The position numbers and the translations under genes were made by a program. Of a stretch of DNA of 64,000 nucleotides, positions 28,116 to 56,681 are shown one piece after another (position 1 is the stretch's first letter; every line of letters starts with the position of its first letter). The DNA is taken from assembly GCA_036821485.1 (NCBI GenBank), contig DAISJM010000002.1, positions 3,771 through 67,770 of the forward strand, given 5' to 3'. The stretch is from Verrucomicrobiota bacterium (GTDB lineage: Bacteria > Verrucomicrobiota > Kiritimatiellia > CAIQIC01 > JAGNIJ01). The notes beneath the pieces were generated by a model. The model was not told where the DNA came from. It saw only the letters and a program-made list of their open reading frames with translations, and did no database searches.

Positions 28116-29879
28116 ATGACTCCGGCGCCTGTCTCACATTCCACACGATGGCCATGGGTGGCAGCCGCCCTCACTGCAGCATTCGGGTTCTCCATCACTA
28201 CTGTCCTTTGGAGAGCACGTATCCACCTGGAGGATACAACTGCCACCGACGAGTTCCGCGCAGAAGCCGACAGCTTGCACCAGCGAGTGAATCGCGAAGT
28301 TCGTCTCTTCACCGACGTCTTGGATTCCATCCGCGATTTGCACAGTATCTCCACGCGCATCACACCCGATGAACTCGAGGAGTTTGTCGGCAAGGGCATG
28401 CTTCACCAGAAGGAAATCCTCGGCTCGTTCGGATTCGCCCAACGGATCGCGCGCGATGTGCGAGGCGCTTTCGAGGCCTCTTCGACGGAGGCTGTCGGCG
28501 CAGGACCGAAGATTGTCGAACAGGATGCCGAGGACTCCTTCCGCCCAGCAGGCGACAGACCCGAATATTATCCGCTCACCTATCAGACACCATCGAACGG
28601 CTTATCCCTGCCCATTGGTTTCGATTTTGGCTCGCGTGCCGACGATCGCGCCGCCATCCAGCACATGCTGGACACTGGGCTCTTCTCACAGGGACATCGC
28701 TTTGCAGCGAACGATCGCTTCGTCGGTGTGTACGTCTTCGCCCCTATCATCTCTCCTGCGGATAACACACCTCCGCCCCCACGGCTCTACATGGCCGGTT
28801 TCGCGGTCGCAATCTTCCAGCCATCACTGATTCTCGACCGCGCTGCAACTGGATTGAATGTTCCCCATTTTCGCGCCGAGTTTGCTGAACCACCCCCCAC
28901 CTTCCATGCATCCACTCCCGTCGTAACAACCATCGGCTCTCCTTCCACAGCCCTTCGATTTGAGGCGCCGGTACGGGTGGCTGATCATACGTGGCTACTC
29001 CGTTGCGAAGCGGGTCCCGAATACCTGCTCGCCAAGCGGTCTGGGCAACCGCTCCTTCTACTGGTCGGCGGCAGCGTCATCACCGTGCTGCTGGCCACGC
29101 TTCTCTTCACACTCGTCAGTCGTACGCGCCGCACGGAGAAGATTGTCCAAACGCGCACCGCTGCCCTGCGCGAGGCCCACGAACACCTCCGCCGGGAAAT
29201 GGCGGAGCGCGGCCGGCTTGAGCATGAACTCCTGGAAATCAGCGAGCGCGAACAGCACCGCGTAGGCCGCGACCTCCATGATTCGCTCGGCCAGAAACTT
29301 ACCGGTGCCGTCTATCTCAGCCGCGCCCTGCTCAGCCAACTGGCCGACGCCGGCGACGAGACCCGCGAAAGCGCGGAGAAGATCAACGGCATTCTCAAGG
29401 ACGCTGTCACACAGGTCCGACGCATTGCGCGCGGCCTTGCCCCCGTCGAACTCGAGGAGGGCGGCCTCGCCTACGCGCTGCGCAAGCTGGCCGAGGAAGC
29501 GCGCGAACTCTATAACGTGTCGTGTGAGTTCACCTCCTCCAACCTCCGCCTCCCCGGCAAGACATCGCTGCACCTCTACCACATCACCCAGGAGGCGATC
29601 CACAATGCCGTCCGCCACGGAGGCGCCACGCACATCCGCATCGGCCTCAGCGAAGCCGGCGGCAACGGTGTGCTTACGGTCGAGGACGATGGCCGCGGCA
29701 TCCCCGATGCGGCGGAGCGGAAGAGCGGCATGGGCCTCCACATCATGGGCTACCGGGCCGAGTCCATCGGCGGAACGTTCGACGTGAGGCGGAAGAGCGA
29801 TCGAGGGACCGTGTTGACATGTCGGTTCAGAATTGGCAACCAATCAGGTGCCGGCGGCACGCCGAGCAAGGACACGTGA
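28116..29879 (+). CDS. sensor histidine kinase, NarX/DesK-type (HisKA_3) with a periplasmic CHASE-like sensor domain
   Basis: Two TM segments bracket a ~270-aa extracytoplasmic domain. HisKA_3 box EREQHRVGRDLHDSLGQ; HATPase_c motifs (HNAVRHGGA, VEDDGRGIP, GMGL). Confidence 0.85.
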   Translation: MTPAPVSHSTRWPWVAAALTAAFGFSITTVLWRARIHLEDTTATDEFRAEADSLHQRVNREVRLFTDVLDSIRDLHSISTRITPDELEEFVGKGMLHQKEILGSFGFAQRIARDVRGAFEASSTEAVGAGPKIVEQDAEDSFRPAGDRPEYYPLTYQTPSNGLSLPIGFDFGSRADDRAAIQHMLDTGLFSQGHRFAANDRFVGVYVFAPIISPADNTPPPPRLYMAGFAVAIFQPSLILDRAATGLNVPHFRAEFAEPPPTFHASTPVVTTIGSPSTALRFEAPVRVADHTWLLRCEAGPEYLLAKRSGQPLLLLVGGSVITVLLATLLFTLVSRTRRTEKIVQTRTAALREAHEHLRREMAERGRLEHELLEISEREQHRVGRDLHDSLGQKLTGAVYLSRALLSQLADAGDETRESAEKINGILKDAVTQVRRIARGLAPVELEEGGLAYALRKLAEEARELYNVSCEFTSSNLRLPGKTSLHLYHITQEAIHNAVRHGGATHIRIGLSEAGGNGVLTVEDDGRGIPDAAERKSGMGLHIMGYRAESIGGTFDVRRKSDRGTVLTCRFRIGNQSGAGGTPSKDT

Positions 29880-29886
29880 CCATCGT

Positions 29887-30570
29887 ATGAAGAAAACCGA
29901 CTCACATGACAATCGGAAGGCGCGCATCCTGGTGATCGACGATCACTCCGTCGTCCGTCACGGCCTGGCTGCCCTGCTCGCCGGAGAAAAGGATATGACC
30001 ATCTGCGGCGAGGCGGCTACCTACGAAGAAGGACTCGCCGCTGCGCTGGAACTGCGGCCCGACATGATGCTGGTCGATATCGTACTCAAGGACCGCAGCG
30101 GCCTGGATCTGATCCGCGACGCGCGCGAGAAGGGTTTCGAAGGCTATTCGCTTGTACTCTCCATGCACGACGAGACCACGCACGCGGAGAAGGCGCTACG
30201 CGCCGGCGCGCAGGGCTACGTGATGAAGGAAAACGCCGACGAGGTCATCGTGGGAGCCATCCGCGAGGTGCTGCGCGGCGAACTCTATTTCAGTGAGCGT
30301 GCCTCGGAACAAATTCTGCGGCAAATGATCGAGAACCCGCCGGGCGAAACGCCGGAGCATGGCGTGGAGAGCCTGACCGCGCGCGAAAAGGAAGTTTTCG
30401 TTTGCATCGGCGAAGGTCTATCCACAAAGAAGATCGCGGAGAAACTCGAATTGAGCGCGCGGACCGTGGAAGTGCACCGCGCACACATCAAGCACAAGCT
30501 GCAGTGCGAAGATGCGGCACAGGTGTTCCGCGAGGCCGTACGCTGGGTCGAACAGCAGGCCGGGAATTGA
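29887..30570 (+). CDS. response regulator, NarL/FixJ (LuxR-type HTH) family
   Basis: REC domain (ILVIDDHSVVRHGL...D...K) plus a C-terminal LuxR HTH (LTAREKEVFVCIGEGLSTKKIAEKLELSARTVEVHRAHIKHKL). Confidence 0.9.
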   Translation: MKKTDSHDNRKARILVIDDHSVVRHGLAALLAGEKDMTICGEAATYEEGLAAALELRPDMMLVDIVLKDRSGLDLIRDAREKGFEGYSLVLSMHDETTHAEKALRAGAQGYVMKENADEVIVGAIREVLRGELYFSERASEQILRQMIENPPGETPEHGVESLTAREKEVFVCIGEGLSTKKIAEKLELSARTVEVHRAHIKHKLQCEDAAQVFREAVRWVEQQAGN

Positions 30571-43564: not shown

Positions 43565-44437
43565 TTACCCGCACACGTGCGCGAGTTCTTCGAGGAAGCC
43601 GCGGACCAACCGGCCCGACACCCACCCGCGATATTCTGCAGTTGAACGGATGTCGTCGATCGGTTTGAGGGACGCCGTCACCTTCGCTTCAACTTCGTCG
43701 AGCAGCTTCTTGTTGATCTTCTTCCCGGGCAGCCACGCCTCCAAGTCGCCCAAGCGAACCGCCGTCGGCGCCATGCTGCCCAGCGCGACGGCAAACGATT
43801 CCACAACGCCCGCGGACGCCTTTCCGCGCCACGCGCCCATCACTTTGGAAATCGCCTGCGCCGCACGCGGCCCAAGTTTCGTGAAGCCTTCCCGGAAACC
43901 ATACGGCAGTTTGGGCAGCACAAAACGGACAATCAATTCCTCGGGCTTGAGGTCGATCTTCCGGTAGCCAAGGAAGAATTGCGCCAGCGAAATCGTGCGC
44001 TCGCCCGCTACCGACGCCACCACCACGCTCCCGCCGGTCACCAGCAGTGCGGGCGCGAGATCGCCCGCCGGACTTGCATTGGCCACGTTGCCCGCAATCG
44101 TGCCGAGCGATTGAATCTGCACACCGCCGACCGTCGCCGCCGACGCGGCCAGCGCGGGCGCGAATTGCCGAACCAGCGCCGACGTGTGAAGCTGCCAGTG
44201 CGTCGTTGCCGCGCCTACAACGATCGCGTCGTCTTCCTCGCGGATACCGCGGAGCTCCGGCACGCCAAGGATGCCGACGACACGCTCCGGCGCAGGCTGC
44301 AGGCCCGACTCCCATTGCACCATGAGGTCGGTGCCGCCTGCGAGGATGCGGCCGCGCCGCTTCTCATCGGCCTGAATCTCCAGCGCCTCCTTGAGGCTGG
44401 CCGGAAACACGCACGCTATGTCTTCGACGCTTCGCAT
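43565..44437 (-). CDS. molybdopterin dehydrogenase FAD-binding subunit (CoxM/XdhB-like)
   Basis: ...ILAGGTDLMVQWESG...; FAD_binding_5 plus CO-dehydrogenase flavoprotein C-terminal-like domain. Confidence 0.85.
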   Translation of the reverse strand: MRSVEDIACVFPASLKEALEIQADEKRRGRILAGGTDLMVQWESGLQPAPERVVGILGVPELRGIREEDDAIVVGAATTHWQLHTSALVRQFAPALAASAATVGGVQIQSLGTIAGNVANASPAGDLAPALLVTGGSVVVASVAGERTISLAQFFLGYRKIDLKPEELIVRFVLPKLPYGFREGFTKLGPRAAQAISKVMGAWRGKASAGVVESFAVALGSMAPTAVRLGDLEAWLPGKKINKKLLDEVEAKVTASLKPIDDIRSTAEYRGWVSGRLVRGFLEELAHVCG

Positions 44438-44440
44438 CGG

Positions 44441-44920
44441 TCACGCACGCTTCCACTTCGTAGCCGCCAACTCCACTGCTTCAACAATCTTCTGATAGCC
44501 CGTGCACCGGCAGAGGTTACCCGCGTGCGCCGTGCGGATCTCGGCCTCGTCCGGATGCGGATTCCGCGTCAGCAACGCGTAGGACGACATGATCATGCCG
44601 GGGATGCAGAACCCGCACTGCGCGGCGCCCTTCTCGACATAGGCCTCCTGCAACAGCCGGCCGTTTTCGGTCTTCTCCAAACCCTCCACCGTCATCAGCT
44701 CCGATCCGTCGGGCACGTGACCCGCGGCCATGAGACAGGAAACCACGGGCTGGCCGTTCAGCAAAATCGTACACGCACCGCACTCGCCCTCGCCGCAACC
44801 TTCCTTGGTTCCGGTGAGCTTGAGTTCAACCCGCAACACGTCGAGCAGCCGCCGCGCGGGCGGCACATCCACTGTCCGACTCTCGCCATTCACGACCCAG
44901 GTTCGTTTGACCGTTTTCAT
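44441..44920 (-). CDS. (2Fe-2S)-binding subunit of xanthine dehydrogenase/CO dehydrogenase family (CoxS-like)
   Basis: CGEGECGACTILLNG...C...; second cluster QCGFCIPGMIM...CRCTGY. Confidence 0.9.
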   Translation of the reverse strand: MKTVKRTWVVNGESRTVDVPPARRLLDVLRVELKLTGTKEGCGEGECGACTILLNGQPVVSCLMAAGHVPDGSELMTVEGLEKTENGRLLQEAYVEKGAAQCGFCIPGMIMSSYALLTRNPHPDEAEIRTAHAGNLCRCTGYQKIVEAVELAATKWKRA

Positions 44921-47238
44921 TTCGTGTCTTTCGCGCTCAGGGCCCGCAGCAATTTCTCGGGCGTGATCGGGAGGTCGGTCATCCGCACGCCCGTCGCCTG
45001 GAACACCGCGTTGGCAATCGCCGGCGCAAGGCCATCCATCGGCATCTCGCCCACACCCTTCGCGCCGGGCGCGGCAAATTCGTAGGGGAACTCGACAAAG
45101 TGAATATCGTACTCGGGCACGTCAAGCATGGTCGGAATGATGTAGGTCTGCATGCGGTCGGCGTCGAACCGGCCGTTGCGGATGCCCATCTTCTCCATCA
45201 CCGCGTAGCCCAGCGCCTGCGTCAGCCCACCTTCGATCTGGCCTTTCGCCAGCACCGGGTTGATCAGGCGACCGATATCAAACACCGCCGTAACTTTCCT
45301 CACGCTCAGCGCAAGCGTGCGTGGATCGATCTCAACCTCGGCAATGTTGCAGCCCCATGCGAACGCGGGATACGCATCGCCGCGGAACGTCTTTTGATCC
45401 CACTTGATCTTGTCGGGCAGCTTGAACCCATTTTCCACGCGGGTGGGTCCGTGCTGCTGCAGGTACTTGTCGGCCACGCTGTCGAATTGGCGCGCGCTGG
45501 TGATCGGCTTGCCGGCGAATTCCTCCAGCATGGCGCGGAGTTTCTGAGCCGCACCAAAAAGCGTCGCGCCGACCACCATCGTCGTGCGGGATGCAACCGT
45601 CGGCCCGCTGTTGGGCGCGAGCGATGTGTCCGGCAGCGGATAGCGCACCTGCTCGATCGCGGCGCAGAGCCCGTCGGCGACAATCTGCGAAAGCACGGTG
45701 AACGCGCCCTGCCCCATATCGGTGGAGCTGACGCGAATGGTGACGCCGGGCCGGCCGTTCTCAAACCAGCCGAGCTCGAGCAACACCTTTGTGCCGATCT
45801 TCGATTCGCCGTCGCCGGTGAAGCCAGAACCGTGCGCGAAGAACGAAAGGCCAATGCCGTACCACGATTTGGCGCCGGGCTTGCCGTGCGTACAACGCTT
45901 GAGTTTCTGGTCGAACTTCGCGCGCTGTAGCGCTTCGGTGAGGACGGTCGGCGAGCCCACGCTGTCGATCAACACCATGCCCGTCGGCGTCGTATCGCCA
46001 ACCTGCAGACAGTTTTTCAGCCTGAACTCGTGCGGGGCAACACCGAGAGCTTCGGCGCAGCGGTCAATCTGCGACTCCATACCCCACGTCGCCTGCGGCG
46101 CGCCGAAACCACGGAACGCGCCCGACGGAAAAACATTCGTGCGACCGGTCAGCCCGTTGACGTCAACATTCGGGCAGCGGTAACCCATCGCCGCGTGGAG
46201 GATGCCGCGGTACATCACGACATCGCTCAACGTCAGGTACGCACCGCCGTTGAGCAGGAAATCGACCTTGATCGCGGTGATCGTGCCGTCGCGCTTGAGG
46301 CCGGTCTTGTGGCGAACCCAGACGGGGTGGCGCTTGGTGGTGAAGAGAATGTCCTGGTGGCGGTCGTAAATCAGTTTCACCGGTTTGCCGGATTTCAGCG
46401 CCGGAAGCGCGCAGTAGCCGGCGACCATCGACGGGAATTCCTCCTTGCCGCCAAACGCTCCGCCCACGGCTTCCTGTCGCACGCGCACCTTGTCCGCCGG
46501 CAGGCCGAGCGCTTCATGAAGCTCATGCACCACATAGTACGGACACTGCAAGCTGCCGCGCAGGAACACGCCGCCGTCCTTCTGCGGAATGGCAATCATG
46601 CCCTGCGGTTCGATATAGAGCTGCTCCTGGTATCCGGCGGTGTACTCGCCCTCGACGACAAGGTCCGCTTCGGCCAGCCCCTTCTCGACATCGCCCTTGA
46701 TGATGGACTGACTGCAGAGGACGTCACCCGACGCGGGCGTACCCCCGGCAAATCCGCCGACGCCCGCAGGCGCCTGCTGTTCGACGCCGGTCACCAGCTT
46801 CCCGTCCTTGAACAGCGCCACGAGTTCTTCCAGCGTGAGGATGGGCGGCAGTTCCTCGATATCGGCCTTGATATGCGCGGCGGCTTCCTTCGCTTGTGCG
46901 AGCGTCGGCGCGGCGACGAGTGCCATCGGCTCGCCAATGTAGCGCACGGTGTCGGCCGCGAGCACGGGCATGGAGCGGTCGTGCATCACGAAGAGATTGG
47001 GGCCGGGAATGTCGGACGCCGTGACGACGACAACCTTGGACCAGTCGAAGGCGGGGTCGAGTTGCAGGCCGCGGAGCTTGCCATGAGCCACGGGCGAGCG
47101 AACCACGAACGCATGCCAGCAACCCGGCATGTCGAGATCATCCACGTACTGGGTGATTCCGCGCACCTTCTCAAGGCCATCCACGCGTGCGATGCCCTTG
47201 CCGATGATGCCCTTGCGATGTGTCACGCCTGTGGTCAT
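44917..47238 (-). CDS. molybdopterin-binding large subunit of xanthine dehydrogenase/aldehyde oxidase family
   Basis: a/b-hammerhead domain GKGIARVDGLEKVRGITQYVDD..., then the Mo-pterin binding domains. Start at MTTGVTHRKG (47238). Confidence 0.88.
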   Translation of the reverse strand: MTTGVTHRKGIIGKGIARVDGLEKVRGITQYVDDLDMPGCWHAFVVRSPVAHGKLRGLQLDPAFDWSKVVVVTASDIPGPNLFVMHDRSMPVLAADTVRYIGEPMALVAAPTLAQAKEAAAHIKADIEELPPILTLEELVALFKDGKLVTGVEQQAPAGVGGFAGGTPASGDVLCSQSIIKGDVEKGLAEADLVVEGEYTAGYQEQLYIEPQGMIAIPQKDGGVFLRGSLQCPYYVVHELHEALGLPADKVRVRQEAVGGAFGGKEEFPSMVAGYCALPALKSGKPVKLIYDRHQDILFTTKRHPVWVRHKTGLKRDGTITAIKVDFLLNGGAYLTLSDVVMYRGILHAAMGYRCPNVDVNGLTGRTNVFPSGAFRGFGAPQATWGMESQIDRCAEALGVAPHEFRLKNCLQVGDTTPTGMVLIDSVGSPTVLTEALQRAKFDQKLKRCTHGKPGAKSWYGIGLSFFAHGSGFTGDGESKIGTKVLLELGWFENGRPGVTIRVSSTDMGQGAFTVLSQIVADGLCAAIEQVRYPLPDTSLAPNSGPTVASRTTMVVGATLFGAAQKLRAMLEEFAGKPITSARQFDSVADKYLQQHGPTRVENGFKLPDKIKWDQKTFRGDAYPAFAWGCNIAEVEIDPRTLALSVRKVTAVFDIGRLINPVLAKGQIEGGLTQALGYAVMEKMGIRNGRFDADRMQTYIIPTMLDVPEYDIHFVEFPYEFAAPGAKGVGEMPMDGLAPAIANAVFQATGVRMTDLPITPEKLLRALSAKDTK

Positions 47239-47356
47239 CGAATAGCGAACCCGTGTCCTCAGAATACGCACCGCCACTGAATAAATCAAACGCTTCGGCC
47301 CCGCTCCACTCACCTTCTTCCTTGTTAACCTTCAGATGCAATGGCAACGTAGCAAG

Positions 47357-48350
47357 CGTGACACGCTATTGGGCATATGGGTTGGGCGCTGTTGTGATGA
47401 TACTGGCCGCCGGGTGCCAATCCCCGCAGGAAATCCGCCCGTTTACAGACGCGCAGCTTCGCGGCTTCTATTCGCGCGCCAAGGACCCGCGCCAATTCTG
47501 GCTTACGCCGTACGAATCGAATGACGGCCCCGTGTATTCGGGCGCCAACCGGCTGCACCCGGAAAAGATGGCCCAGTTCCAGTTCCGCGGCAACAGCCGT
47601 TCCACAGCGCCGATCATCCCCTTCAAGGCCGAACGGCCGGAAAATGAATTCCTGGCCCTGGTCGACACGTCCTCCAAGGAAAGCTGGCTGGACCTCAACA
47701 CGGCACGGGGAGTCGGCGTGACCCCCATCGCACCGCCGCCGGCAAGAGTCATACCGGAACATGTTCAGGAAACTATCACCGGCTACGCCACGGTGGCGAG
47801 GCAGCTTCTCCTGGATAAGTGCCCCATCGAGATGGCGCTGCTATTCACCCGCGGCGCAACCGGCCCGCTCGGCGCGCTCGCCCGCGGCGAGGAACACCCC
47901 AGGCCCGGCGCCGTGTTCGGCTACGACCTCCTGCGCCAGTTTGCCTTCGTCCAATTCGATTTTGCCCTGCGAACGATTACCTTCTCGTCCAGCATCGACT
48001 ACAACCCTGAACCGGAAGTACTGGTCGCCAGCGTCCCCTTCTTTCTGCAGGACGGGGCACTGGCAGTGCGGGGAACCGTGGAGGGTGAGCCGACCACGAT
48101 CCTGCTCGACACGGCGGGCGATTTTGAACTGGCCCTGAAAGAACCCCGGTTGGACCCCGTGCGAAGGCTCGGGCTGGGCAGCCTTGTGATCATGAACGTC
48201 AACCCGGCCATCCACCAGGATTTCAATCTGGGCCTGACGGACTACCCGCGTGTCGGACGGAAACTGCTCGCGCGATACAGGATCACCATTTCCAATAAGC
48301 AGCGCAGGATATTCTTCGAACGACCAAGCCGCCTGCCAAAGGCGAAGTGA
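47357..48350 (+). CDS. lipoprotein with two retropepsin/pepsin-like aspartic protease motifs
   Basis: Likely GTG start giving MTRYWAYGLGAVVMILAAGC (lipobox); the alternative ATG is at 47396. Motifs ALVDTSS and LLDTAGD in separate halves. Confidence 0.6.
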
Positions 48351-48365
48351 TCGACCGGGGGAGCA

Positions 48366-49430
48366 ATGAATCAACGGCTGCCCGTTATGTTCCTGGCCTT
48401 GTGCGCCGCCACGCTCGCAGGCTGTAGCACGCTGCCGCCACCGGGCGAGCCGCTCGCACCCCGACAGAAGACTGCGCTGGAGCGGCGGGCCCGGCAGCCC
48501 GAAGCCCTGGGCGTAAGCGCGCGCGTGGAAAATGGAAGCCTGAAGCTCTCCAACATCCGCGAAGTGGATTCGCTTGCACTGCCGATCTCGCTCCTCCTCA
48601 ACACCGAATTTCTCCAACCCGCCCGCTTCCCGGTCGTTCGCATGCGGATCAATGGACATCTCGTCTTCGGCCTGCTGGATACCGGCTCCTCGCTCTCGCT
48701 GATCGAATACGGTGCTACGATGCGGGCGCGCGTCGCGCCCCTCGGTCCACCACTGGTCGCTTCGCGCGGCCAGGGACTCGGCGGCCGTCTGCGCTGTTAC
48801 GTCGGCATCGCAGAATCCGTAATGCTGGATGAGTTGCAACTCCGGCGTGTACCTTTCGGCATCGTGGACGATGCATGGGGCCTCACTCCGCTGTGGTGGC
48901 TGGAGGGTCACCGCGTCGAAGCGATACTGGGCAACGACTTCCTCCAACCACTGGGATATCTGTCCATCAACCTGCCCGGCGAAAGAGCAACCCTGGGTGG
49001 CGACGGGCCATACACACCCAATCCCGACCGCCTCGCTGCCGCACTGCCCTTTTCCATGGAGAACGGCGTGCCGGTAATCAATGCCGATGTGGACGGCATC
49101 GGGCGGCTGCGCATAGTCATCGATTCGGGTGGCGATTTCGGCCTGTGGATCCCGCGCGGGATTGCAGGTCAACTTAAGCTTTCAGTCCTGAACGACACAA
49201 CGCGCGTCAGCATCGGGTCCGGTGTCGGCGGCGAAAGTGTATGGAAGGACGCCGGTCCGCACGTCGTCAGCCTCGCAGGCCTTGAGCTTGCAAACGTGGA
49301 GACACACGTTTCCATGATCAATTTCGGCGAACAGGATCCGCCCTTTGCGCTCATGGGTCTGCAGGCTCTGCAGAATTACCTCATCACCTTTGACTACCGG
49401 TATCACACGGTGTACTTAGAATACCCTTAA
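48366..49430 (+). CDS. lipoprotein with two aspartic-protease-like motifs (paralog of the upstream gene)
   Basis: MNQRLPVMFLALCAATLAGCS (lipobox); motifs LLDTGSS and VIDSGGD in two pseudo-symmetric halves. Confidence 0.65.
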   Translation: MNQRLPVMFLALCAATLAGCSTLPPPGEPLAPRQKTALERRARQPEALGVSARVENGSLKLSNIREVDSLALPISLLLNTEFLQPARFPVVRMRINGHLVFGLLDTGSSLSLIEYGATMRARVAPLGPPLVASRGQGLGGRLRCYVGIAESVMLDELQLRRVPFGIVDDAWGLTPLWWLEGHRVEAILGNDFLQPLGYLSINLPGERATLGGDGPYTPNPDRLAAALPFSMENGVPVINADVDGIGRLRIVIDSGGDFGLWIPRGIAGQLKLSVLNDTTRVSIGSGVGGESVWKDAGPHVVSLAGLELANVETHVSMINFGEQDPPFALMGLQALQNYLITFDYRYHTVYLEYP

Positions 49431-49495
49431 GGGTGTATCAGATCGCGGCGGGCGCTCTTTGCAGGCGAAACCGCGTTAGCGGGGAGGGTTGTAGC

Positions 49496-50626
49496 ATGAC
49501 TCCATCCAGCGTAGATCGTTCTTCGCTCGTCACGCGCGGAGCGCGCGTTCAATTCGCCACCGGAGTCGCCTTGGTGTCCATCATCCCGCTGCTGACCTTT
49601 CTATATCTCTACCTCAACCGTACCGCTTTCGGTGCCGACACGCTGGTCGTCGTGCTGCTGCTCGCGGTCACCGGATTCGGCGGCTATGGCATCCTTCGCA
49701 AATATCCCGTCAACATCGTGCGGCTGCGCGGCTACCTCGAACACATGATCTACGGCGAGTTGCCCGAACAGGTGCAACTGCTCAAGGCCGAGGATGACAT
49801 CGCGGCCGTCGAGCGCTGCTTGAACCTGATTGTCGACCAGCTTCGCGAGCGGCTGGGCATCCTCCAGCAGGAAAAGAAGAACCTGCAGCAGCAGCTCTAC
49901 CAGATGCAGAAGATGGAAAGCCTCGGCGTGATGGCAGCGGGCGTTGCCCACGATTTCAACAACCTGCTGACCGGTATCCTCGGCAACGTCAACCTCCTCT
50001 CTGAACGCGTTCGCGACAATGCCGAGGTGCGCCGGAACATCAAGGATATGGAAGACCTCGTCATGCGGGCCTCCGAGCTGACACACCAGATGCTCACTTA
50101 CTGCGGCAAGGCCCAGAGCGTCATGGTTCCGGTCGACGCCAACATGATCGCCCGCGATATGGATGCGCTGCTCTCCGCCGCAGTGGCCAAGGGCGTACAT
50201 CTCCAGTGTGACCTTGCCGGCGACCTGCCCAAGGTCCACGCCGACCCCACCCAACTCCGGCAGGTTATGATGAATCTCGTCATCAACGCTTCCGATGCCA
50301 TCGGTGCGCGCGGCGGCAAGATCACGGTCGCCACGCGGGCAATCCACTGCGATCGCAACGACTTCCTTGGCGCCTGCATCAACGGCAAGCTCCCCGAGGG
50401 CGAATGTGTTTGCATAGAGGTCGGGGACAATGGCTGCGGCATCGATGCGGACAAGCAGGCGAAGATATTCGACCCCTTCTTCTCCACCAAGCCGAGGGGC
50501 CGTGGGCTCGGCCTCGCGGTGGTCCTCGGCATCATCGTGGCGCACAAGGGCGCTGTCGTACTCGAGAGCGAACCCGGGAAGGGAACGATGTTCCGGATCC
50601 TGCTCCCCGCTGTGAAGGCGGCCTGA
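49496..50626 (+). CDS. sensor histidine kinase (HisKA + HATPase_c), no adjacent response regulator
   Basis: Two N-terminal TM segments, coiled coil, H-box ESLGVMAAGVAHDFNNLLT, N/G1/G2 boxes (NLVINASDA, DNGCGID, GRGLGLAV). Confidence 0.85.
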   Translation: MTPSSVDRSSLVTRGARVQFATGVALVSIIPLLTFLYLYLNRTAFGADTLVVVLLLAVTGFGGYGILRKYPVNIVRLRGYLEHMIYGELPEQVQLLKAEDDIAAVERCLNLIVDQLRERLGILQQEKKNLQQQLYQMQKMESLGVMAAGVAHDFNNLLTGILGNVNLLSERVRDNAEVRRNIKDMEDLVMRASELTHQMLTYCGKAQSVMVPVDANMIARDMDALLSAAVAKGVHLQCDLAGDLPKVHADPTQLRQVMMNLVINASDAIGARGGKITVATRAIHCDRNDFLGACINGKLPEGECVCIEVGDNGCGIDADKQAKIFDPFFSTKPRGRGLGLAVVLGIIVAHKGAVVLESEPGKGTMFRILLPAVKAA

Positions 50627-50681: not shown

Positions 50682-51761
50682 ATGACTGTTGCGGTCCACA
50701 TCCGAGACGTCACGAAGACTTTTGAGAATACGCGGGCGGTAGATCGCATCACGCTCGACATCGCCCCCGGTGAGCTCTTCTTCCTGCTCGGACCCAGCGG
50801 CTGCGGCAAGACCACCCTCCTGCGCTGCATCGCGGGCTTCTACACGCCGGATACAGGCTCCATCTCTTTCGACAATCGCGATATCACCCGGCTGCCTCCG
50901 CACGAGCGCAACACGGGCATGGTCTTCCAGAGCTACGCGCTCTGGCCTCACATGACCGTCGGCGAGAACGTAGCCTTCGGCCTTGAACTCCGGGGGCTAC
51001 CCAAGGCGGACATCCGCCGCCGGGTTGGCGAGGCGCTCGATATGGTACGCATGGGCGACCGCGCCGACGGCAAGCCCAACGAGCTGTCCGGCGGGCAGCA
51101 GCAGCGCATCGCGCTGGCCCGCGCGCTGGTAATCCGCCCGCTCTGCCTGCTCCTCGATGAGCCCCTCTCCAACCTCGACGCCAAGCTGCGTCTCGAGATG
51201 CGCGCGGAAATCCGCCGCATCTGCAAGGAAGCCGGGCTCACCGCCATCTACGTCACGCACGATCAGAAGGAAGCCCTCTCCATCGCTGACCGCCTCGCCA
51301 TCCTCGAAAGCGGAGCCATACGCCAGTGCGGCCGGCCGCAGGATGTCTACCTCCGCCCCAACAGCCGTTTCGTCGCCGGCTTTATCGGCGAGACCAATCT
51401 CGTTGACGGCGTTGTCCGGAACGCCACGGCGGGCAAGCTCGTCGTTCGCACCGCGTTCGGCGACGTAACCAGCACGGCATTGACCGACGAATCACCCGCG
51501 AACGGGACCGCCGTAACCTTGTCGCTCCGGCCGGAAGTCATCCGGCTTGGGACACCGCCCGCCGGGACGGTCAACGTGTTTGATGGCGAAATCCACGACA
51601 CGAATTACCTCGGCGAAATCGCCCAGCACCAGGTCCGGCTCGGACCATCCGGTACGGAATTCAAAGTCTTTGAGATGCATCCGAAGTTCGTCGCACGGGA
51701 TCACGTTGAACGGGCGCAGGCATGGATCGATGCCGCGGACGTCATCGTGTTGACCAGGTAG
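50682..51761 (+). CDS. ABC transporter ATP-binding protein (PotA/FbpC/MalK-like)
   Basis: GPSGCGKTT, LSGGQQQRIALARAL, LLLDEP; C-terminal TOBE-like domain. Confidence 0.9.
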   Translation: MTVAVHIRDVTKTFENTRAVDRITLDIAPGELFFLLGPSGCGKTTLLRCIAGFYTPDTGSISFDNRDITRLPPHERNTGMVFQSYALWPHMTVGENVAFGLELRGLPKADIRRRVGEALDMVRMGDRADGKPNELSGGQQQRIALARALVIRPLCLLLDEPLSNLDAKLRLEMRAEIRRICKEAGLTAIYVTHDQKEALSIADRLAILESGAIRQCGRPQDVYLRPNSRFVAGFIGETNLVDGVVRNATAGKLVVRTAFGDVTSTALTDESPANGTAVTLSLRPEVIRLGTPPAGTVNVFDGEIHDTNYLGEIAQHQVRLGPSGTEFKVFEMHPKFVARDHVERAQAWIDAADVIVLTR

Positions 51762-51821
51762 TAGCATGCACAGGGATGAGGAAGCGTAAACGGCCGGCGG
51801 CGCCCGACCAGAGAGTGAAAT

Positions 51822-53168
51822 ATGACAGATGCCATTATCGACGACGGTCAGGACAAGGCCGTACATCATTACCCCCGCGGCTTTCGTCCGCGACGCGGGC
51901 TCAACTGGGGATTCGTGGGCTTCAGCTATGCCTCGTTCTACCTCTGCCGCTACAACTTGTCGTTCGCCAACAAGGCGATCTGCGATGAGTTCGGTTTCTC
52001 GAAGGACCAGTTCGGCTGGGTGCTGACGGCCTTCTTCTGGGCCTACGCCATCGGCCAGATGGTAAACGGCCTCATCGCGGACCGCATCGGCGGCAAACAG
52101 GCCCTCGCGATCGGCGCATTCGCCACGGTCGTGCTGAATATTCTTTTCGGTGTAGCCTCGTTCTGGGGACTGTTGAGCGTGTTTGTGCTCATCTGGCTGT
52201 TGAACGGGTTCATGCAGGCCTTCGGCGCGCCGGGCATGATCAAAACCAACACCGCCTGGTTCAGCCAACGCGAACGCGGCAAGTTCGCCGGCATCTTCGG
52301 CTTCATGATCCAGCTCGGACGATTTGTCATCACGAAGCTGGCACCAACCCTGATGGCAGGTTTCACCATTCTGTGGTGGACCGTCGAGCCTCTTCACTGG
52401 CGCTATGTCTTCTGGGTGCCCGCGGGCATTGCCTTCATCGTGACCCTGCTCATGCTGGTGTTTGTGAAAAACACGCCGGAAGAGGCCGGGTTCCACAACA
52501 TGCATCCGGGCGAGGAAGACCACGCCGAGAACGAACGTGCAGGGCTCCTGGAGAGCTTCAAGGTCATCTTCAGCAACCGCTACATCTGGATCTTCGCCGG
52601 CGCCTACGCGTGCACCGGCGTTGTGCGTCAGGGCATCGACCAGTGGTTCCCCCGCTACATGCAGGAGGTCTACAACGTCTCGCTCAAGTCTGCGGAGTTC
52701 GGCTGGGTCGCTTTCGGCATCCCCCTGGTCGCCGTGCTGGGCGCACTGTCGGCCGGCTTCCTCTCGGACACCGTGTTCAAGGGACGTCGCGCACCGGTCG
52801 CCGCGATCTTCTACTTCGTGGAGACGGTTATCATCGTTGCGGCGTTCTTCTTTGCCAAGTCGCTGGTCAGCACGTCCATCTTCCTCATCCTGATTTCCTT
52901 CACTGTCAACTCGACACACTCCATCCTCGGCACCGCCGCGGCCATGGACATCGGCGGCCGTCGCATGGCCGGCACGGCATCAGGTGTAATCGATTCATTC
53001 CAATATTACGGCGGCGGCATCGCGGGCTTTTTCCTCGGCTGGCTGCTGGAAAAGTACGGCTGGAATTCCTGGCTGATCAGTCTGGCGGGCTTTGGCATCA
53101 TCGGCGGCTGCCTGATGCTGTCGATTTCGAAAAAGGCCAATCTGAAGGCAGGCACCCAGGAGGCGTGA
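51822..53168 (+). CDS. MFS transporter, organophosphate:phosphate antiporter-like (GlpT/UhpC family)
   Basis: 12 TM segments; SYASFYLCRYNLSFANKAI and GLIADRIGGKQ motifs typical of the OPA family. Confidence 0.75.
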   Translation: MTDAIIDDGQDKAVHHYPRGFRPRRGLNWGFVGFSYASFYLCRYNLSFANKAICDEFGFSKDQFGWVLTAFFWAYAIGQMVNGLIADRIGGKQALAIGAFATVVLNILFGVASFWGLLSVFVLIWLLNGFMQAFGAPGMIKTNTAWFSQRERGKFAGIFGFMIQLGRFVITKLAPTLMAGFTILWWTVEPLHWRYVFWVPAGIAFIVTLLMLVFVKNTPEEAGFHNMHPGEEDHAENERAGLLESFKVIFSNRYIWIFAGAYACTGVVRQGIDQWFPRYMQEVYNVSLKSAEFGWVAFGIPLVAVLGALSAGFLSDTVFKGRRAPVAAIFYFVETVIIVAAFFFAKSLVSTSIFLILISFTVNSTHSILGTAAAMDIGGRRMAGTASGVIDSFQYYGGGIAGFFLGWLLEKYGWNSWLISLAGFGIIGGCLMLSISKKANLKAGTQEA

Positions 53169-53214
53169 GGCATCCAGTCCTCCGTCGAACGTCGGGTCGT
53201 AGACGCGTGGCGCT

Positions 53215-54972
53215 TTGGTCATGTTGAAGAACATCTCCATCCTGGTCCTGGCAGCACTTGTCATCGCCCTGCCTTTCCTGTTCCGCAGCCCCACAACCCG
53301 TGCTGATTGGCGGCCGGGCGACCCGGTCGTTGTCATCATCACGCCGATGAACGAGGCGATCCGTTACGAATTCGGCCGGGCCTTCTCCGCCTGGCATCAG
53401 CAGAAGTATGGCCGCCCGGCCCTCGTCGACTGGCGCGCCATCGGCGGCAGCACGGAGATCAGCCGTTACCTCACCTCGGAAATGGTCAATGCCGTCCGCG
53501 CGTGGTGGACCGGCCAGGGCAAGTCATGGCCCCGCGGCACCGGCGAGGCAATCCTCGACGCAAAGTTCGAGGCCAACGCGCCCGCGCCCGAGGCCCGCGC
53601 CGCGTGGGACCAGCAGCATGCCGCATGGCTCGCCTATCGCGCGACGGATGACCCCGCCGCTTTCACGTGCCGCATCGACCTTCTCTTCGGCGCGGGCGAG
53701 TACGACCATACCGATGCGCAACGCAAGGGCCTCACCGTTCCCGCGTGGCCACCGGGCGGCGCGCCGACAGGACTCTTCGCCCGTGAAGACGGCGCCATGC
53801 TCATCCCGGAAAGACTCAGCGGCGAAACATGGCGCACCCCGAACATGTTCGGTACCGTGCTCAGTACGTTCGGCATCTGCTACAACACCGATCGTCTCGC
53901 CGATCTCGGCATCACCCATCCACCGCTGCAGTGGGATGACCTCGCCGATCCCGCCTACTTTCGCCAGGTCGGCGTCGCCGACCCGACGAAGAGCGGCAGT
54001 ATCGCCAAAGCCTTCGAAATGATCATCCAGCAGAAGTGCCGTCAGGCCGTCGGCGCAGCCGGATTTGACGAGACGGCGATCGACCGCTTTGAGGCCCTCT
54101 TCAAGAAAGCCGGCCTGCCCCCCGGCGAAGTACCCGAAGGCGTGCCCGCGATCTACCAGGCCGCCGTCGAGCGCGGCTGGGAGGATGGCCTGCACCTTGT
54201 CCAACTCATCGGCGCCAACGCGCGCTACTTCACCGACTCGGCCAGCAGGGTGCCCATCGATGTCGGCGCGGGCGATGCCGCGGCCGGCCTCGTGATTGAT
54301 TTCTATGGACGCTACCAGGCCCAGTGCAGCCGTCCCGCCGATGGTCGCGATCGCATGTTCTACGTCACCCCGATCGGTGGCTCGAGCGTGAGCGCCGATC
54401 CTCTCGGACTGATCCGCGGCGCGCAGCATCGCGAAACCGCCCTGCGATTCATCGAGTTCACGCTCAGCGAGGAAGGTCAGCGACTTTGGACCTACGCGCC
54501 CGGCACTCCCGGCGGCCCGGAGAAATACGCCTTGCGACGACTGCCCATCCGCCGCGATTTCTACCCGTCGGACGACCCCGCCATGAATGCCGCGGCGGTC
54601 GCGAACATGAAGTACGCCACGGACGACTTGGCAGACCCGGACATCAACCCGTACACGCTGGCCACGAATTTCACCTACCGCAGTCGCTGGACTGGCTCAC
54701 ATTTTGGCGTCCAGCGCGACTTGATCCGGGCCATGTGCCTCGACTCGGCCGACGAACTTCGCGCAGCATGGGAAGCCATTCTCCGGCACGGAGGACCCGC
54801 CGCACAGCCGGAGGCCATGGAACTTCTCGGCCGCTTGCCGGATGCGCCCGAACAGCTGTCATGGCACAACGCCACCGCCATCGCAAAGAAGTATGATGCG
54901 ATGGAACGCATGCGCACGTGGACAGCCTTCTATCGGGGCAACTACAGGAAAGTGAAGGAGCTGTTGGAATAA
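53215..54972 (+). CDS. ABC transporter substrate-binding protein (family 1; Fe3+/polyamine/thiamine type), unusually long
   Basis: N-terminal signal anchor MVMLKNISILVLAALVIALPF; 585 aa; bacterial extracellular solute-binding protein fold. Confidence 0.65.
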   Translation: MVMLKNISILVLAALVIALPFLFRSPTTRADWRPGDPVVVIITPMNEAIRYEFGRAFSAWHQQKYGRPALVDWRAIGGSTEISRYLTSEMVNAVRAWWTGQGKSWPRGTGEAILDAKFEANAPAPEARAAWDQQHAAWLAYRATDDPAAFTCRIDLLFGAGEYDHTDAQRKGLTVPAWPPGGAPTGLFAREDGAMLIPERLSGETWRTPNMFGTVLSTFGICYNTDRLADLGITHPPLQWDDLADPAYFRQVGVADPTKSGSIAKAFEMIIQQKCRQAVGAAGFDETAIDRFEALFKKAGLPPGEVPEGVPAIYQAAVERGWEDGLHLVQLIGANARYFTDSASRVPIDVGAGDAAAGLVIDFYGRYQAQCSRPADGRDRMFYVTPIGGSSVSADPLGLIRGAQHRETALRFIEFTLSEEGQRLWTYAPGTPGGPEKYALRRLPIRRDFYPSDDPAMNAAAVANMKYATDDLADPDINPYTLATNFTYRSRWTGSHFGVQRDLIRAMCLDSADELRAAWEAILRHGGPAAQPEAMELLGRLPDAPEQLSWHNATAIAKKYDAMERMRTWTAFYRGNYRKVKELLE

Positions 54973-54974
54973 CC

Positions 54975-56681
54975 ATGCAGCGCCGCTTGCACAGATTCAT
55001 CTTCGGCTTTGCTCTCGTCACGCTCGGCGTGCTCTTCATCGCGCCGCTGTCCATGGTGATCAGCGGCGGTTTCCACGTCGGCGGCCGCTTCACGCTGAAA
55101 TATCTCGCGGGCGTCTTCCAAAACCCGATTTACGCCGAGGGCCTGGTGCGCAGCGTGATGATTGCCATTGGCACAACGACGCTGGCCACACTCGTCGCCA
55201 TTCCGCTGGCATGGCTCTCGAACCGATTTGAGTTCGCGGGCAAGAAATGGATCAACGGACTCGTTCTCATACCGATGATCCTGCCGCCCTTTGTCGGCGC
55301 CATCGGCTTCCAACAGATCCTCGGCCAGTACGGCGTCCTGAACGCCCTGCTCGGACTCGGCCCGATCGACTGGCTTGGACGCGGGCGCTACTTCGGCGTG
55401 ATCCTGCTCCAGGCACTCGCGCTCTATCCCATTCTCTATCTCAACGTCACCGCCGCGCTGGCCAACATCGATCCCGCGATGGAGGAGGCTGCCGAGAATC
55501 TAGGCTGCCGGGCCCTGCGCCGGTTCACGCGTATCACGCTGCCGCTCATGATGCCCGGCCTGTTCGCCGGCGGCACCATCGTCTTCATCTGGAGTTTCAC
55601 CGAACTCGGCACACCACTGATCATGAACTACACGCGTTGTGCGCCGGTCCAGGTATTCGATGCGCTGAAGGAAATCGGCACCAACCCGTTTCCCTACGCG
55701 CTCGTCTGCGTGATGCTGACGGCCAGCGTCGGGCTGTACGCGGTAAGCCGGTTTGTGTTCGGACGGAAGGCCTACGCGATGCAGAGCAAAGCCGCCACGG
55801 CGTCCACCGCAGCGCGCGTGCACGGCCCGCGTGCCATGCTGGTGGCCCTGCCGTTTCTCGTCGTCATCGGCCTCGCTATCCTGCCCCACATCGGCGTCAT
55901 CCTCACCAGCTTTTCGGAACCCGGAAGCTGGTATCGATCCGTCTTGCCCGCCCGATTCACCACGGAGAATTACATCGAGGCGCTGGGGCACAGCATGACG
56001 GTCAGCAGTATCCGCAACAGCCTGCTCTATTCATCGCTCGCCGTCTTCGCAAACGCGATCCTCGGCATTGCCATCGCCTTCGTTGTCGTCCGCTCCGATA
56101 TCCGCTGGCGCGGCGCGCTGGACACGCTTGCCATGCTTCCGCTGGCGGTACCCGGCCTTGTCATGGCCTTCGGGTACCTCGCCATCAGTTCGCGGTTGTC
56201 GAATCTCGATGCCGTGAAGGATTCGCCCCTGCTCCAATCCCTGGTCGATGTCCGCGTAAACCCGACCCTGTTTCTCGTCATCGCCTACAGCGTTCGACGC
56301 CTTCCCTACATGGTGCGATCTGCGGTCGCCGGATTGCAACAGACCTCGGTGACGTTTGAGGAGAGCGCGGCGAATCTCGGCGCGGGACCCATGACAACAC
56401 TGCGGCGGATCACCCTGCCGCTGATCTCGGCCAACCTCATTGCGGGCGCACTGCTCGCCTTCGCGTTCAGCATGTTGGAAGTGTCGGACAGCCTGATGCT
56501 CGCGCAGCGATCCGATTTCTATCCGATCACGAAGACGATCTATGAACTCTTCGGCCTCATCGGCACAGGCAAGTACGTGGCCGCTGCGCTCGGTGTCTGG
56601 GCCATGGCCTTCCTGACCGTCACCATCCTCGGGAGCAGCCTGATCCTTGGCCGCAAACTCGGCGCCCTCTTCCGGGCTTAA
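54975..56681 (+). CDS. ABC transporter permease with duplicated permease domains (FbpB/PotBC-like, 12 TM)
   Basis: Two EAA-loop-containing permease modules in a single polypeptide; start MQRRLHRFIFGFALVTLGVLF directly after the binding-protein stop. Confidence 0.8.
   Translation: MQRRLHRFIFGFALVTLGVLFIAPLSMVISGGFHVGGRFTLKYLAGVFQNPIYAEGLVRSVMIAIGTTTLATLVAIPLAWLSNRFEFAGKKWINGLVLIPMILPPFVGAIGFQQILGQYGVLNALLGLGPIDWLGRGRYFGVILLQALALYPILYLNVTAALANIDPAMEEAAENLGCRALRRFTRITLPLMMPGLFAGGTIVFIWSFTELGTPLIMNYTRCAPVQVFDALKEIGTNPFPYALVCVMLTASVGLYAVSRFVFGRKAYAMQSKAATASTAARVHGPRAMLVALPFLVVIGLAILPHIGVILTSFSEPGSWYRSVLPARFTTENYIEALGHSMTVSSIRNSLLYSSLAVFANAILGIAIAFVVVRSDIRWRGALDTLAMLPLAVPGLVMAFGYLAISSRLSNLDAVKDSPLLQSLVDVRVNPTLFLVIAYSVRRLPYMVRSAVAGLQQTSVTFEESAANLGAGPMTTLRRITLPLISANLIAGALLAFAFSMLEVSDSLMLAQRSDFYPITKTIYELFGLIGTGKYVAAALGVWAMAFLTVTILGSSLILGRKLGALFRA

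Follow-up and report, generated by a model that had tools for sequence, protein, structure and literature searches.

Two adjacent lipoprotein genes followed by a sensor kinase gene raise the question of whether this locus encodes aspartic proteases and, if so, whether the kinase belongs with them. We analyzed the locus within a 64-kb stretch of Verrucomicrobiota DNA (the window), in which the three genes lie co-directionally on the forward strand with gaps of 15 bp between the first (P1) and the second (P2) and 65 bp between P2 and the kinase. We favor, with moderate confidence, a reading in which P2 is a lipid-anchored endopeptidase of clan AA, P1 is its impaired paralog, and the kinase stands outside the conserved unit.

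The P2 gene (48366..49430, +) encodes a 354-aa predicted lipoprotein that is a candidate single-chain, two-lobed, retropepsin-like aspartic protease of clan AA. Its lipobox L-A-G-C (48414..48425, +) ends in Cys20, which follows the signal peptide, and the lipobox Cys is found in 57 of 63 members of the P2 family. The putative catalytic motif of the N lobe, D105-T-G-S (48678..48689, +), is invariant in seven close orthologs, and among the 63 family members the Asp is kept in 55, Thr or Ser in 62, and the Gly in 56. The putative catalytic motif of the C lobe, D253-S-G-G-D (49122..49136, +), likewise has an invariant Asp and Gly in the close orthologs, with family counts of 52, 61, and 54 for Asp, Thr/Ser, and Gly, respectively. 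Each lobe also contains a flap-like hairpin. The N-lobe hairpin S-R-G-Q-G-L-G-G-R (48762..48788, +) has glycines that are kept in 45/63 (G139) and 51/63 (G140) family members and matches the GxGG segment of the C lobe in a lobe-to-lobe hhalign comparison; the C-lobe hairpin V-S-I-G-S-G-V-G-G-E-S (49206..49238, +) matches the GVG flap segment of the Ddi1 retropepsin domain. The hydrophobic-hydrophobic-Gly motifs of both lobes are invariant (G189 and G331, 63/63). P2 matched the Pfam family Asp_protease_2 (PF13650) in two stretches with 46.3 bits (cut-off 24.3; E = 7e-12), and an NCBIfam scan gave a sub-threshold match to clan_AA_DTGF. A catalytic Asp or Gly has been lost in 15 of the 63 full-length family members, suggesting that non-catalytic roles readily evolve in the P2 family.

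The predicted structure of P2 agrees with this domain layout. An AF2 model built from 63 diverse sequences was confident (pLDDT 92.3, pTM 0.89) and bilobed, with one motif Asp in each lobe; an alignment of the seven close orthologs gave a pLDDT of 47. The two lobes of P2 aligned with each other at 99% probability (hhalign, E = 3.8e-18) over 120 columns that cover the DTG, flap, and LG motifs, and a whole-chain superposition of the model on pepsins was obtained. Together, the model and the lobe alignment support P2 as a pseudo-dimeric, pepsin-like bilobed protein made from two retropepsin-like lobes. From the pepsin superposition and the motif alignment we infer that D105 and D253 would be apposed. 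By our own estimate, a lone D-[TS]-G motif occurs by chance about 0.17 times per 350-aa protein; the P2 motifs exceed this expectation, given the Pfam E-value, the family-wide conservation of both motifs, and the confident bilobed model.

The P1 gene starts with a GTG codon at position 47358, one base from the 47357 given in an earlier note on this DNA, and encodes a 330-aa predicted lipoprotein (47358..48350, +) that appears to be a degenerate, two-lobed, retropepsin-like paralog of P2. The lipobox of P1, L-A-A-G-C (47403..47417, +), places Cys20 after the signal peptide, and this Cys is kept in 30 of 30 family members; P1 and P2 both conform to the rule [LVI][ASTG][GAS]C, in keeping with the lipoprotein assignment that the note had made for the two. 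The same note had credited each protein with two DTG/DSG motifs. All four strings that it quoted are at the expected places (VDTSS and LDTAGD in P1, LDTGSS and IDSGGD in P2), and the claim stands for P2 (DTG at 105-107 and DSG at 253-255) but not for P1, which has DTS and DTA instead. In the N-lobe motif D103-T104-S105 (47664..47672, +) the Gly of DTG is replaced; across 30 family members the Asp and Thr are invariant, and the third residue is Ser in 24, Thr in 6, and Gly in none. The C-lobe motif D251-T-A253-G-D (48108..48122, +) has Ala for the DTG Gly, with D251 and G254 in 30/30 members and A253 and D255 in 29/30. Just 3' of this motif, hhalign revealed a deletion of ~28 residues that correspond to the C-lobe flap of P2, and the N-lobe flap is remodeled around a conserved H135-V136...G142-Y. 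The hydrophobic-hydrophobic-Gly motifs are retained (G188 and G300, both 30/30), and R65, R176, R298, and H135 are invariant in the family alignment. P1 scored below the PF13650 cut-off (13.2 vs 24.3 bits, E = 0.15), almost none of its homologs (n = 31) has any Pfam domain, an NCBIfam scan returned no family for it, and a Pfam scan found no PF00026 match at E ≤ 1 for either P1 or P2. Replacement of the motif Gly is known to inactivate pepsin-fold proteins, as in the cockroach allergen Bla g 2 (DST/DTS) and bovine PAG-1 (Gly to Ala). The DTS/DTA motifs, the loss of the C-lobe flap, and the sub-threshold Pfam score indicate that P1 is probably not a canonical protease. As a separate observation, both P1 Asp residues are invariant, which would not usually be expected of a dead enzyme and may point to an altered activity.

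P1 and P2 are 23% identical over 255 aa by BLASTP (E = 3e-13), and their profiles align at 100% probability over 316 columns (hhalign, E = 3.8e-49), which identifies them as ancient paralogs and bears out the paralogy proposed earlier. The profile-profile homology to P2, the sole link of P1 to clan AA, makes P1 assignable to that clan and supports the same two-lobe architecture for it; the pseudo-dimeric pepsin-like fold claimed for both proteins thus holds for P2 and, by homology and with degenerate motifs, for P1. Their description as a tandem duplication was not upheld, since the paralogs are ancient and P1-type genes also occur alone elsewhere. The P1-P2 pair is kept at 11 loci (L001-L011) in MAGs of Verrucomicrobiota and Lentisphaerae, with 44% identity at L001 and 31-36% at L008-L011. 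P1-type genes are often found without P2 and in varied contexts, so P1 is not solely a P2 accessory. In L015 and L024, the genes 3' of a lone P1-type gene were considered as cryptic P2 homologs, which hhalign ruled out. The most consistent downstream gene of the pair encodes an ABC-transporter ATPase (PhnT2/PotA-like; 50682..51761, +; NCBIfam TIGR03265, E = 8.5e-106, below the cut-off of that model), which follows the kinase gene in L003 and L004, a gene for an OPA-family MFS transporter in L001 and L008, and the pair directly in L009-L011.

The third gene encodes a membrane histidine kinase of 376 aa (49496..50626, +), whose ATG start is preceded by the SD-like sequence GGGGAGGG and agrees with the gene callers; a longer reading from a GTG at 49433 is less likely. 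Two TM helices joined by a loop of ~8 aa are followed by a coiled coil, a HisKA domain (E = 4.2e-8) and a HATPase_c domain (E = 7.4e-22), and the H-box AHDFNN (49946-49963) contains the phospho-acceptor His (49949-49951). A UhpB-like partnership with the UhpC-like MFS transporter was rejected on this architecture of two TM helices and HisKA; UhpB-type kinases combine MASE1 with HisKA_3. The Pfam scan found no receiver domain in the kinase, and the sole receiver-like ORF in the window (29818-30567) lies ~19 kb away, as expected from the earlier description of a kinase without an adjacent response regulator; none is found beside the kinase in L003, L004, or L007 either. These features would suit one regulated envelope-processing module of P1, P2, and the kinase, as the note had proposed. 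In such a module, P1 and P2, or fragments cleaved from them, would provide the input to the kinase, whose output would go to a response regulator encoded far away. The short loop between the TM helices would call for an accessory sensor, and no terminator-like site separates the three closely spaced genes, although the promoter/terminator scan was at or below shuffle expectation. The kinase gene lies next to the pair in L003, L004, L007, and the P0002 contig, and L005 and L006 have truncated copies of it; in relatives that are 77-98% identical, the three genes stay together. However, adjacency is confined to relatives at least 77% identical, where shared ancestry alone would give such conservation, and the kinase is missing from L001 and L008-L011, all of the more distant loci that retain P1-P2. 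The phyletic pattern therefore marks the kinase as a lineage-specific, recent neighbor outside the conserved P1-P2 unit, and we regard a three-gene module as quite unlikely.

Three further readings concern the function of the pair itself. P1 and P2 could both be non-protease binders with a pepsin fold (inhibitor, receptor, or scaffold), the DTG/DSG motifs of P2 being a structural relic; such proteins exist, for example the wheat xylanase inhibitor TAXI-I, soybean Bg7S, and Bla g 2. Both D-T/S-G motifs, both hydrophobic-hydrophobic-Gly motifs, and both flap glycines of P2 are nevertheless conserved down to 31-44% identity, the pattern expected under selection for catalysis, and we consider this reading unlikely. 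Least probable of all is that P1, with or without P2, is accessory to organophosphate/glycerol-3-phosphate uptake or lipid metabolism, serving GlpT/UhpC-like MFS and PhnS2T2U2-like ABC transporters. An OPA-family MFS gene is a near neighbor of the pair in the window, L001, and L008, and in L012-L014 such a gene and the stop codon of a lone P1-type gene overlap by 4 nt; genes resembling gpsA, plsY, or glpD flank other copies, and the invariant R65, R176, R298, and H135 of P1 could bind an anionic ligand. Yet lone P1-type genes also adjoin the unrelated GDT1, GDSL lipase/TPR, BON/MscS, and TrkA genes, the association could be inherited synteny, and we know of no pepsin-fold protein that binds organophosphates. 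The invariant D-T-[ST] and D-T-A-G-D motifs, the His-Val flap, the three Arg residues, and the recurrent transporter and G3P-metabolism neighbors also raise the idea that the P1 family has gained a new role in ligand binding or catalysis (for example, with an anionic organophosphate or lipid head-group) or modulates P2 by gating it, which we rate as improbable.

Under the favored reading, in which P2 is the protease and P1 its impaired paralog, the two fused retropepsin-like domains would let one P2 chain make the pseudo-dimer that retroviral proteases build from two. Each lobe would contribute one catalytic Asp (D105 and D253) from the psi-loop of its D-T/S-G motif, held by the hydrophobic-hydrophobic-Gly motif (G189 and G331). 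If P2 works like pepsin and HIV protease, water in the inter-lobe cleft would be activated by the Asp pair while the flaps close over the peptide. The lipobox Cys would anchor P2 in a membrane, exposed to the periplasm or at the cell surface, where envelope or external proteins may be its substrates for processing or degradation. P1, encoded immediately upstream, would most likely have impaired catalysis and act as a binding or regulatory partner, not as a second protease. The P1-P2 unit would then be a conserved gene pair of a PVC-superphylum clade, to which a kinase was recently added in one sub-lineage.

Comparison with known proteins placed P2 in a large but little-described class. The P2 profile matched 2,422 cluster representatives at E ≤ 1e-3, of which 269 reached E ≤ 1e-10, and 9 of 10 sampled representatives contain at least two Asp_protease_2 stretches. 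A cluster look-up gave no name other than "hypothetical protein". P2 alone had no match among PDB sequences (phmmer); the P2-family profile was required, and it matched single-lobe retropepsin-type proteins and 9iy9, with a plasmepsin marginal (E = 0.014). In the profile alignment, D105 and D253 of P2 fall opposite the two DTG motifs of 9iy9, and the D105 region also aligns to residues 8-34 of HIV-1 protease. The closest solved homolog of P2 is 9iy9, an "Exported protein / putative endopeptidase" of Bacteroides fragilis released on 2025-08-06, which differs from P2 in its 12% identity, its length of 420 aa with ~150 extra N-terminal residues, and its phylum, and is also uncharacterised. These proteins had been called rare and uncharacterised: the number of clusters and the deposited crystal structure of a homolog contradict the former, whereas the latter still holds for the literature that could be searched, in which we found no characterised close homolog of P2 and nothing relevant on 9IY9, PF13650, or a retropepsin-type structure from Bacteroides fragilis.

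Pepsins have a single flap, on the N lobe, whereas both lobes of P2 contain a flap-like GxGG segment. Like pepsin family A1 (pepsin, renin, plasmepsins, and the bacterial shewasins A and D; PMC2761423, PMC4814920), P2 is bilobed and has one Asp in each lobe, but, as noted, it does not match PF00026. The lobes of P2 are still homologous in sequence, whereas lobe similarity in A1 amounts to two short motifs (PMC2761423). P2 is also a predicted lipoprotein, in contrast to the bacterial A1 homologs, for which an intracellular location is predicted (PMC2761423). The P2 fusion is most likely independent of A1. Single-lobe retropepsin-like proteases that work as homodimers include HIV-1 protease (A2), Ddi1 (A28), ASPRV1, Rickettsia APRc (PMC4140852), and Pseudomonas aeruginosa enzymes (PMC12239564). 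For the C-terminal aspartic-protease-like domain of mycobacterial PE-PGRS proteins (Rv0977, PDB 4ehc, PF20729), the PF20729 score was 11.5 bits, far under the cut-off of 33; this domain also differs in export route and domain context, with a PE/PGRS N-terminus rather than the lipobox of P1 and P2. The inactive pepsin-fold proteins (Bla g 2, pregnancy-associated glycoproteins, and TAXI xylanase inhibitors) are eukaryotic A1 derivatives, whereas P1 descends from the double-retropepsin proteins of bacteria and has also lost one flap. By sequence comparison, P2 is a new member of a catalogued, widespread, two-lobed PF13650 class, and P1 represents a new degenerate partner family.

According to a textbook hypothesis, pepsin arose when a retropepsin-like half was duplicated and fused. 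It is still debated whether intermediates of this kind ever existed in bacteria (PMC2761423). With clearly homologous halves that both have flaps, P2 and its relatives look like a living "tethered retropepsin dimer" independent of A1, in a two-lobed class that is abundant in metagenomes. The practical impact would be modest until the activity and substrates of P2 and P1 are established. The pair sets an intact active site against a degenerate one on a shared scaffold, which could help in studying the origins of pseudo-proteases, and P1-type proteins, now annotated as "hypothetical", can be placed in clan AA. If P1 did prove to have a new function or to gate P2, it would represent a new functional class on a bacterial acid-protease scaffold.

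Two adjacent genes, P1 (47358-48350, + strand; 330 aa, GTG start) and P2 (48366-49430, + strand; 354 aa), are followed in the same direction by a histidine kinase gene of 376 aa that likely extends from the ATG at 49496 to 50626 (+ strand); GGGGAGGG precedes this ATG and the gene callers agree, and a longer reading from the GTG at 49433 is less likely. The P1 start differs by one base from the position given in the earlier note, 47357. Both genes encode lipobox proteins, as had been proposed, with a short basic/hydrophobic N-terminal signal sequence followed by LAAGC in P1 and LAGC in P2, Cys20 being the lipobox cysteine in each. This cysteine is conserved in 30/30 P1-family and 57/63 P2-family sequences, and the four protein strings quoted in the note were all found in the translations.

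P2 is a member of the retropepsin-like family PF13650 (Asp_protease_2) with a two-copy architecture, matching it in two stretches (46.3 bits versus a Pfam cut-off of 24.3) with additional support from Pfam matches to gag-asp_proteas and RVP. A profile built from P2 together with its orthologs and searched against representatives of 50%-identity clusters matched 2,422 of these at E ≤ 1e-3; the number fell to 269 at ≤ 1e-10 and to 62 at ≤ 1e-30. Among 63 full-length family members, both D-T/S-G motifs are well conserved (D105, 55/63; T/S106, 62/63; G107, 56/63; D253, 52/63; T/S254, 61/63; G255, 54/63), and the glycines of the two hydrophobic-hydrophobic-Gly motifs, G189 and G331, are found in all 63. 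Each lobe also contains a GxGG hairpin resembling the retropepsin flap. Alignment of the N and C halves by hhalign (probability 99%, E 3.8e-18, 120 columns) paired DTG with DSG, flap with flap, and LG with LG. The AF2 model of P2 obtained from the 63 sequences had a pLDDT of 92.3 and a pTM of 0.89, compared with a pLDDT of only 47 from a shallow alignment, and the 579 Foldseek matches of this model at E ≤ 1e-3 are consistent with the fold. By sequence, the P2 profile matches the crystal structure 9iy9 (E 2.9e-11), where the alignment brings D105 and D253 onto its two DTG motifs, as well as DDI1/DDI2, HIV-1 protease, and ASPRV1. The predicted pepsin-like pseudo-dimer of two retropepsin-like lobes is thus borne out for P2, and whole-chain superposition together with the motif alignment suggests that D105 and D253 are apposed. 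P2 does not belong to pepsin family A1, since it has no Pfam match to PF00026, its lobes are mutually homologous, and it has two flaps; the likeness to A1 would lie in the outline of its working.

P1 and P2 are, by sequence comparison, genuine and ancient paralogs (23% identity, BLASTP E 3e-13; profile-profile probability 100%, E 3.8e-49, 316 columns). P1 scores under the Pfam threshold for Asp_protease_2 (13.2 bits) and has no NCBIfam family, and nearly all of its 31 detectable relatives lack a Pfam domain, 'hypothetical protein' being the best name given. The P1 family retains both aspartates, whereas the motif glycine is missing from every sequence (N lobe, D103-T104-[S24/T6]-[S/A]; C lobe, D251-[T/S]-A253-G254-D255), so the statement that each protein carries two DTG/DSG motifs was half right, holding for P2. 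The C-lobe flap, ~28 residues in P2, is missing from P1, and its N-lobe flap region has a different conserved signature (H135-V136...G142-Y143). In pepsin folds, substitutions of the motif glycine, as in Bla g 2 (DST/DTS) and bovine PAG-1 (Gly to Ala), abolish or cripple catalysis while the binding cleft is retained. In light of these precedents and of its motif and flap changes, P1 is best taken as a degenerate paralog that is probably non-proteolytic. Residues R65, R176, R298, and W110 are invariant, and the very high conservation of P1 as a whole shows that it is under selection for a function in its own right.

The P1-P2 order was found in near-identical metagenome contigs (L003-L006), at L007 (77% identity), at L001/L002 (44%), and in four GTDB genomes (31-36%) labeled as uncultured Verrucomicrobiota (L008-L010) and Lentisphaerae (L011). 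In the contig of P0002, another relative (79%), the P1 position is occupied by a gene of ~358 aa that has no Pfam match. From this distribution, a bacterium of the PVC superphylum is the most likely source of the window. Lone P1-type genes overlap a GlpT/UhpC-like MFS gene (L012-14, by 4 nt at the P1-type stop codon) or adjoin GDT1 (L016), a GDSL-lipase/TPR protein (L018), a GlpD-like dehydrogenase and YidC (L019/20), or BON/MscS (L021); another lies downstream of plsY and gpsA (L015). P1 can clearly function alone, and its occurrence without P2 in such varied settings indicates that the pair is not a recent tandem duplication. Divergent from P1, the window carries a three-gene xanthine-dehydrogenase-family molybdoenzyme cluster (43565-47313, - strand) with FAD-binding, 2Fe-2S, and PucD/XdhA-like Mo subunits, all under equivalog cut-offs; this synteny is kept in L001, L003, L007, and L008 and not in L009-L011.

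With its fold and motifs established, P2 would act as a lipid-anchored, single-chain clan-AA aspartic endopeptidase, in which D105 and D253, one per lobe, would activate water in the cleft that separates the lobes, and the substrate would be covered by two closing flaps. While tethered to the membrane, it may act on envelope or extracellular proteins. P1 would be a catalytically impaired paralog, probably a binder rather than a cleaver, that may cooperate with P2 where the two are paired. That both are non-enzymatic binding proteins seems unlikely, although it draws support from the P2-family alignment (A2), where, in 15/63 full-length proteins, one D-T/S-G motif or both have lost an Asp or Gly (e.g., ATA/ATA, ATS/ATS, DTA/DSG); these losses indicate recurrent pseudo-protease evolution in the bacterial two-lobe family.

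A module regulated by the kinase is quite improbable. The kinase (two TM helices, an ~8-residue link, a coiled coil, HisKA, and HATPase_c, with no receiver domain) is accurately called an orphan, the sole receiver-like ORF of the 64-kb window lying 19 kb away. However, it follows P2 only in relatives at least 77% identical, as shared ancestry alone would yield, and is missing at L001 and L008-L011, which keep P1-P2; it is thus a recent neighbor, and its functional tie to the lipoproteins is unsupported. The receiver-like ORF (~29818-30567, + strand; phmmer E about 1e-7 against PhoB and NtrC receivers) directly follows a 587-aa ORF (28116-29879) that may be its kinase.

A role linked to organophosphate transport appears very doubtful. 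A PhnT2/PotA-like ABC ATPase is the most consistent downstream neighbor of the pair, and an MFS gene of the OPA family (GlpT/UhpC/PgtP-like) often occurs nearby. The organophosphate/G3P theme is treated here as an unexplained association, not a function. Downstream of the kinase, the gene group at 50682-56681 (+ strand) begins with a PhnT2-like ABC ATPase and includes the MFS transporter (51822-53168, + strand), an unusually long substrate-binding protein (585 aa) that matches PhnS2 only faintly, and a PhnU2/ModB-like permease in which two domains are fused. The MFS gene recurs by P1/P2-type genes at L001, L008, and L012-L014, accompanied by a small membrane protein at L008 (9019-9492, - strand; DUF805-like by eye only, with a GGNRYP-like C-terminal motif) and L012 (8799-9311, + strand; weak DUF805 match). 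G3P genes repeatedly flank P1-type genes across lineages (gpsA and plsY upstream at L009-L011 and L015; a GlpD-like DAO+DAO_C dehydrogenase at L019/L020), which may reflect inherited synteny or a functional hint.

The two-copy PF13650 architecture is common rather than rare, with at least two stretches in 9/10 sampled distant matches, some of which add PDZ or TPR domains; 9iy9 is its one deposited crystal structure. Among these matches, Asp_protease_2 occurs as two or three stretches in P0086, P0096, P0113, and P0120 (660-1,180 aa), with PDZ domains added in P0096 and no more than a sub-threshold DUF4292 match in P0120, and TPR repeats occur in the 468-aa P0137; these architectures appear uncharacterised. 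The searchable literature yielded no biochemical study of the double-retropepsin class, in agreement with the earlier note. Characterized bacterial relatives are the single-lobe APRc (PMC4140852) and P. aeruginosa retropepsin-like enzymes (PMC12239564), and shewasins are true bacterial A1 homologs (PMC2761423, PMC4814920). The P2 class is already catalogued, with nothing mechanistically unexpected here, and the more original element is the Pfam-invisible P1 family. The finding bears on the old question of the origin of pepsin from retropepsin-like halves.
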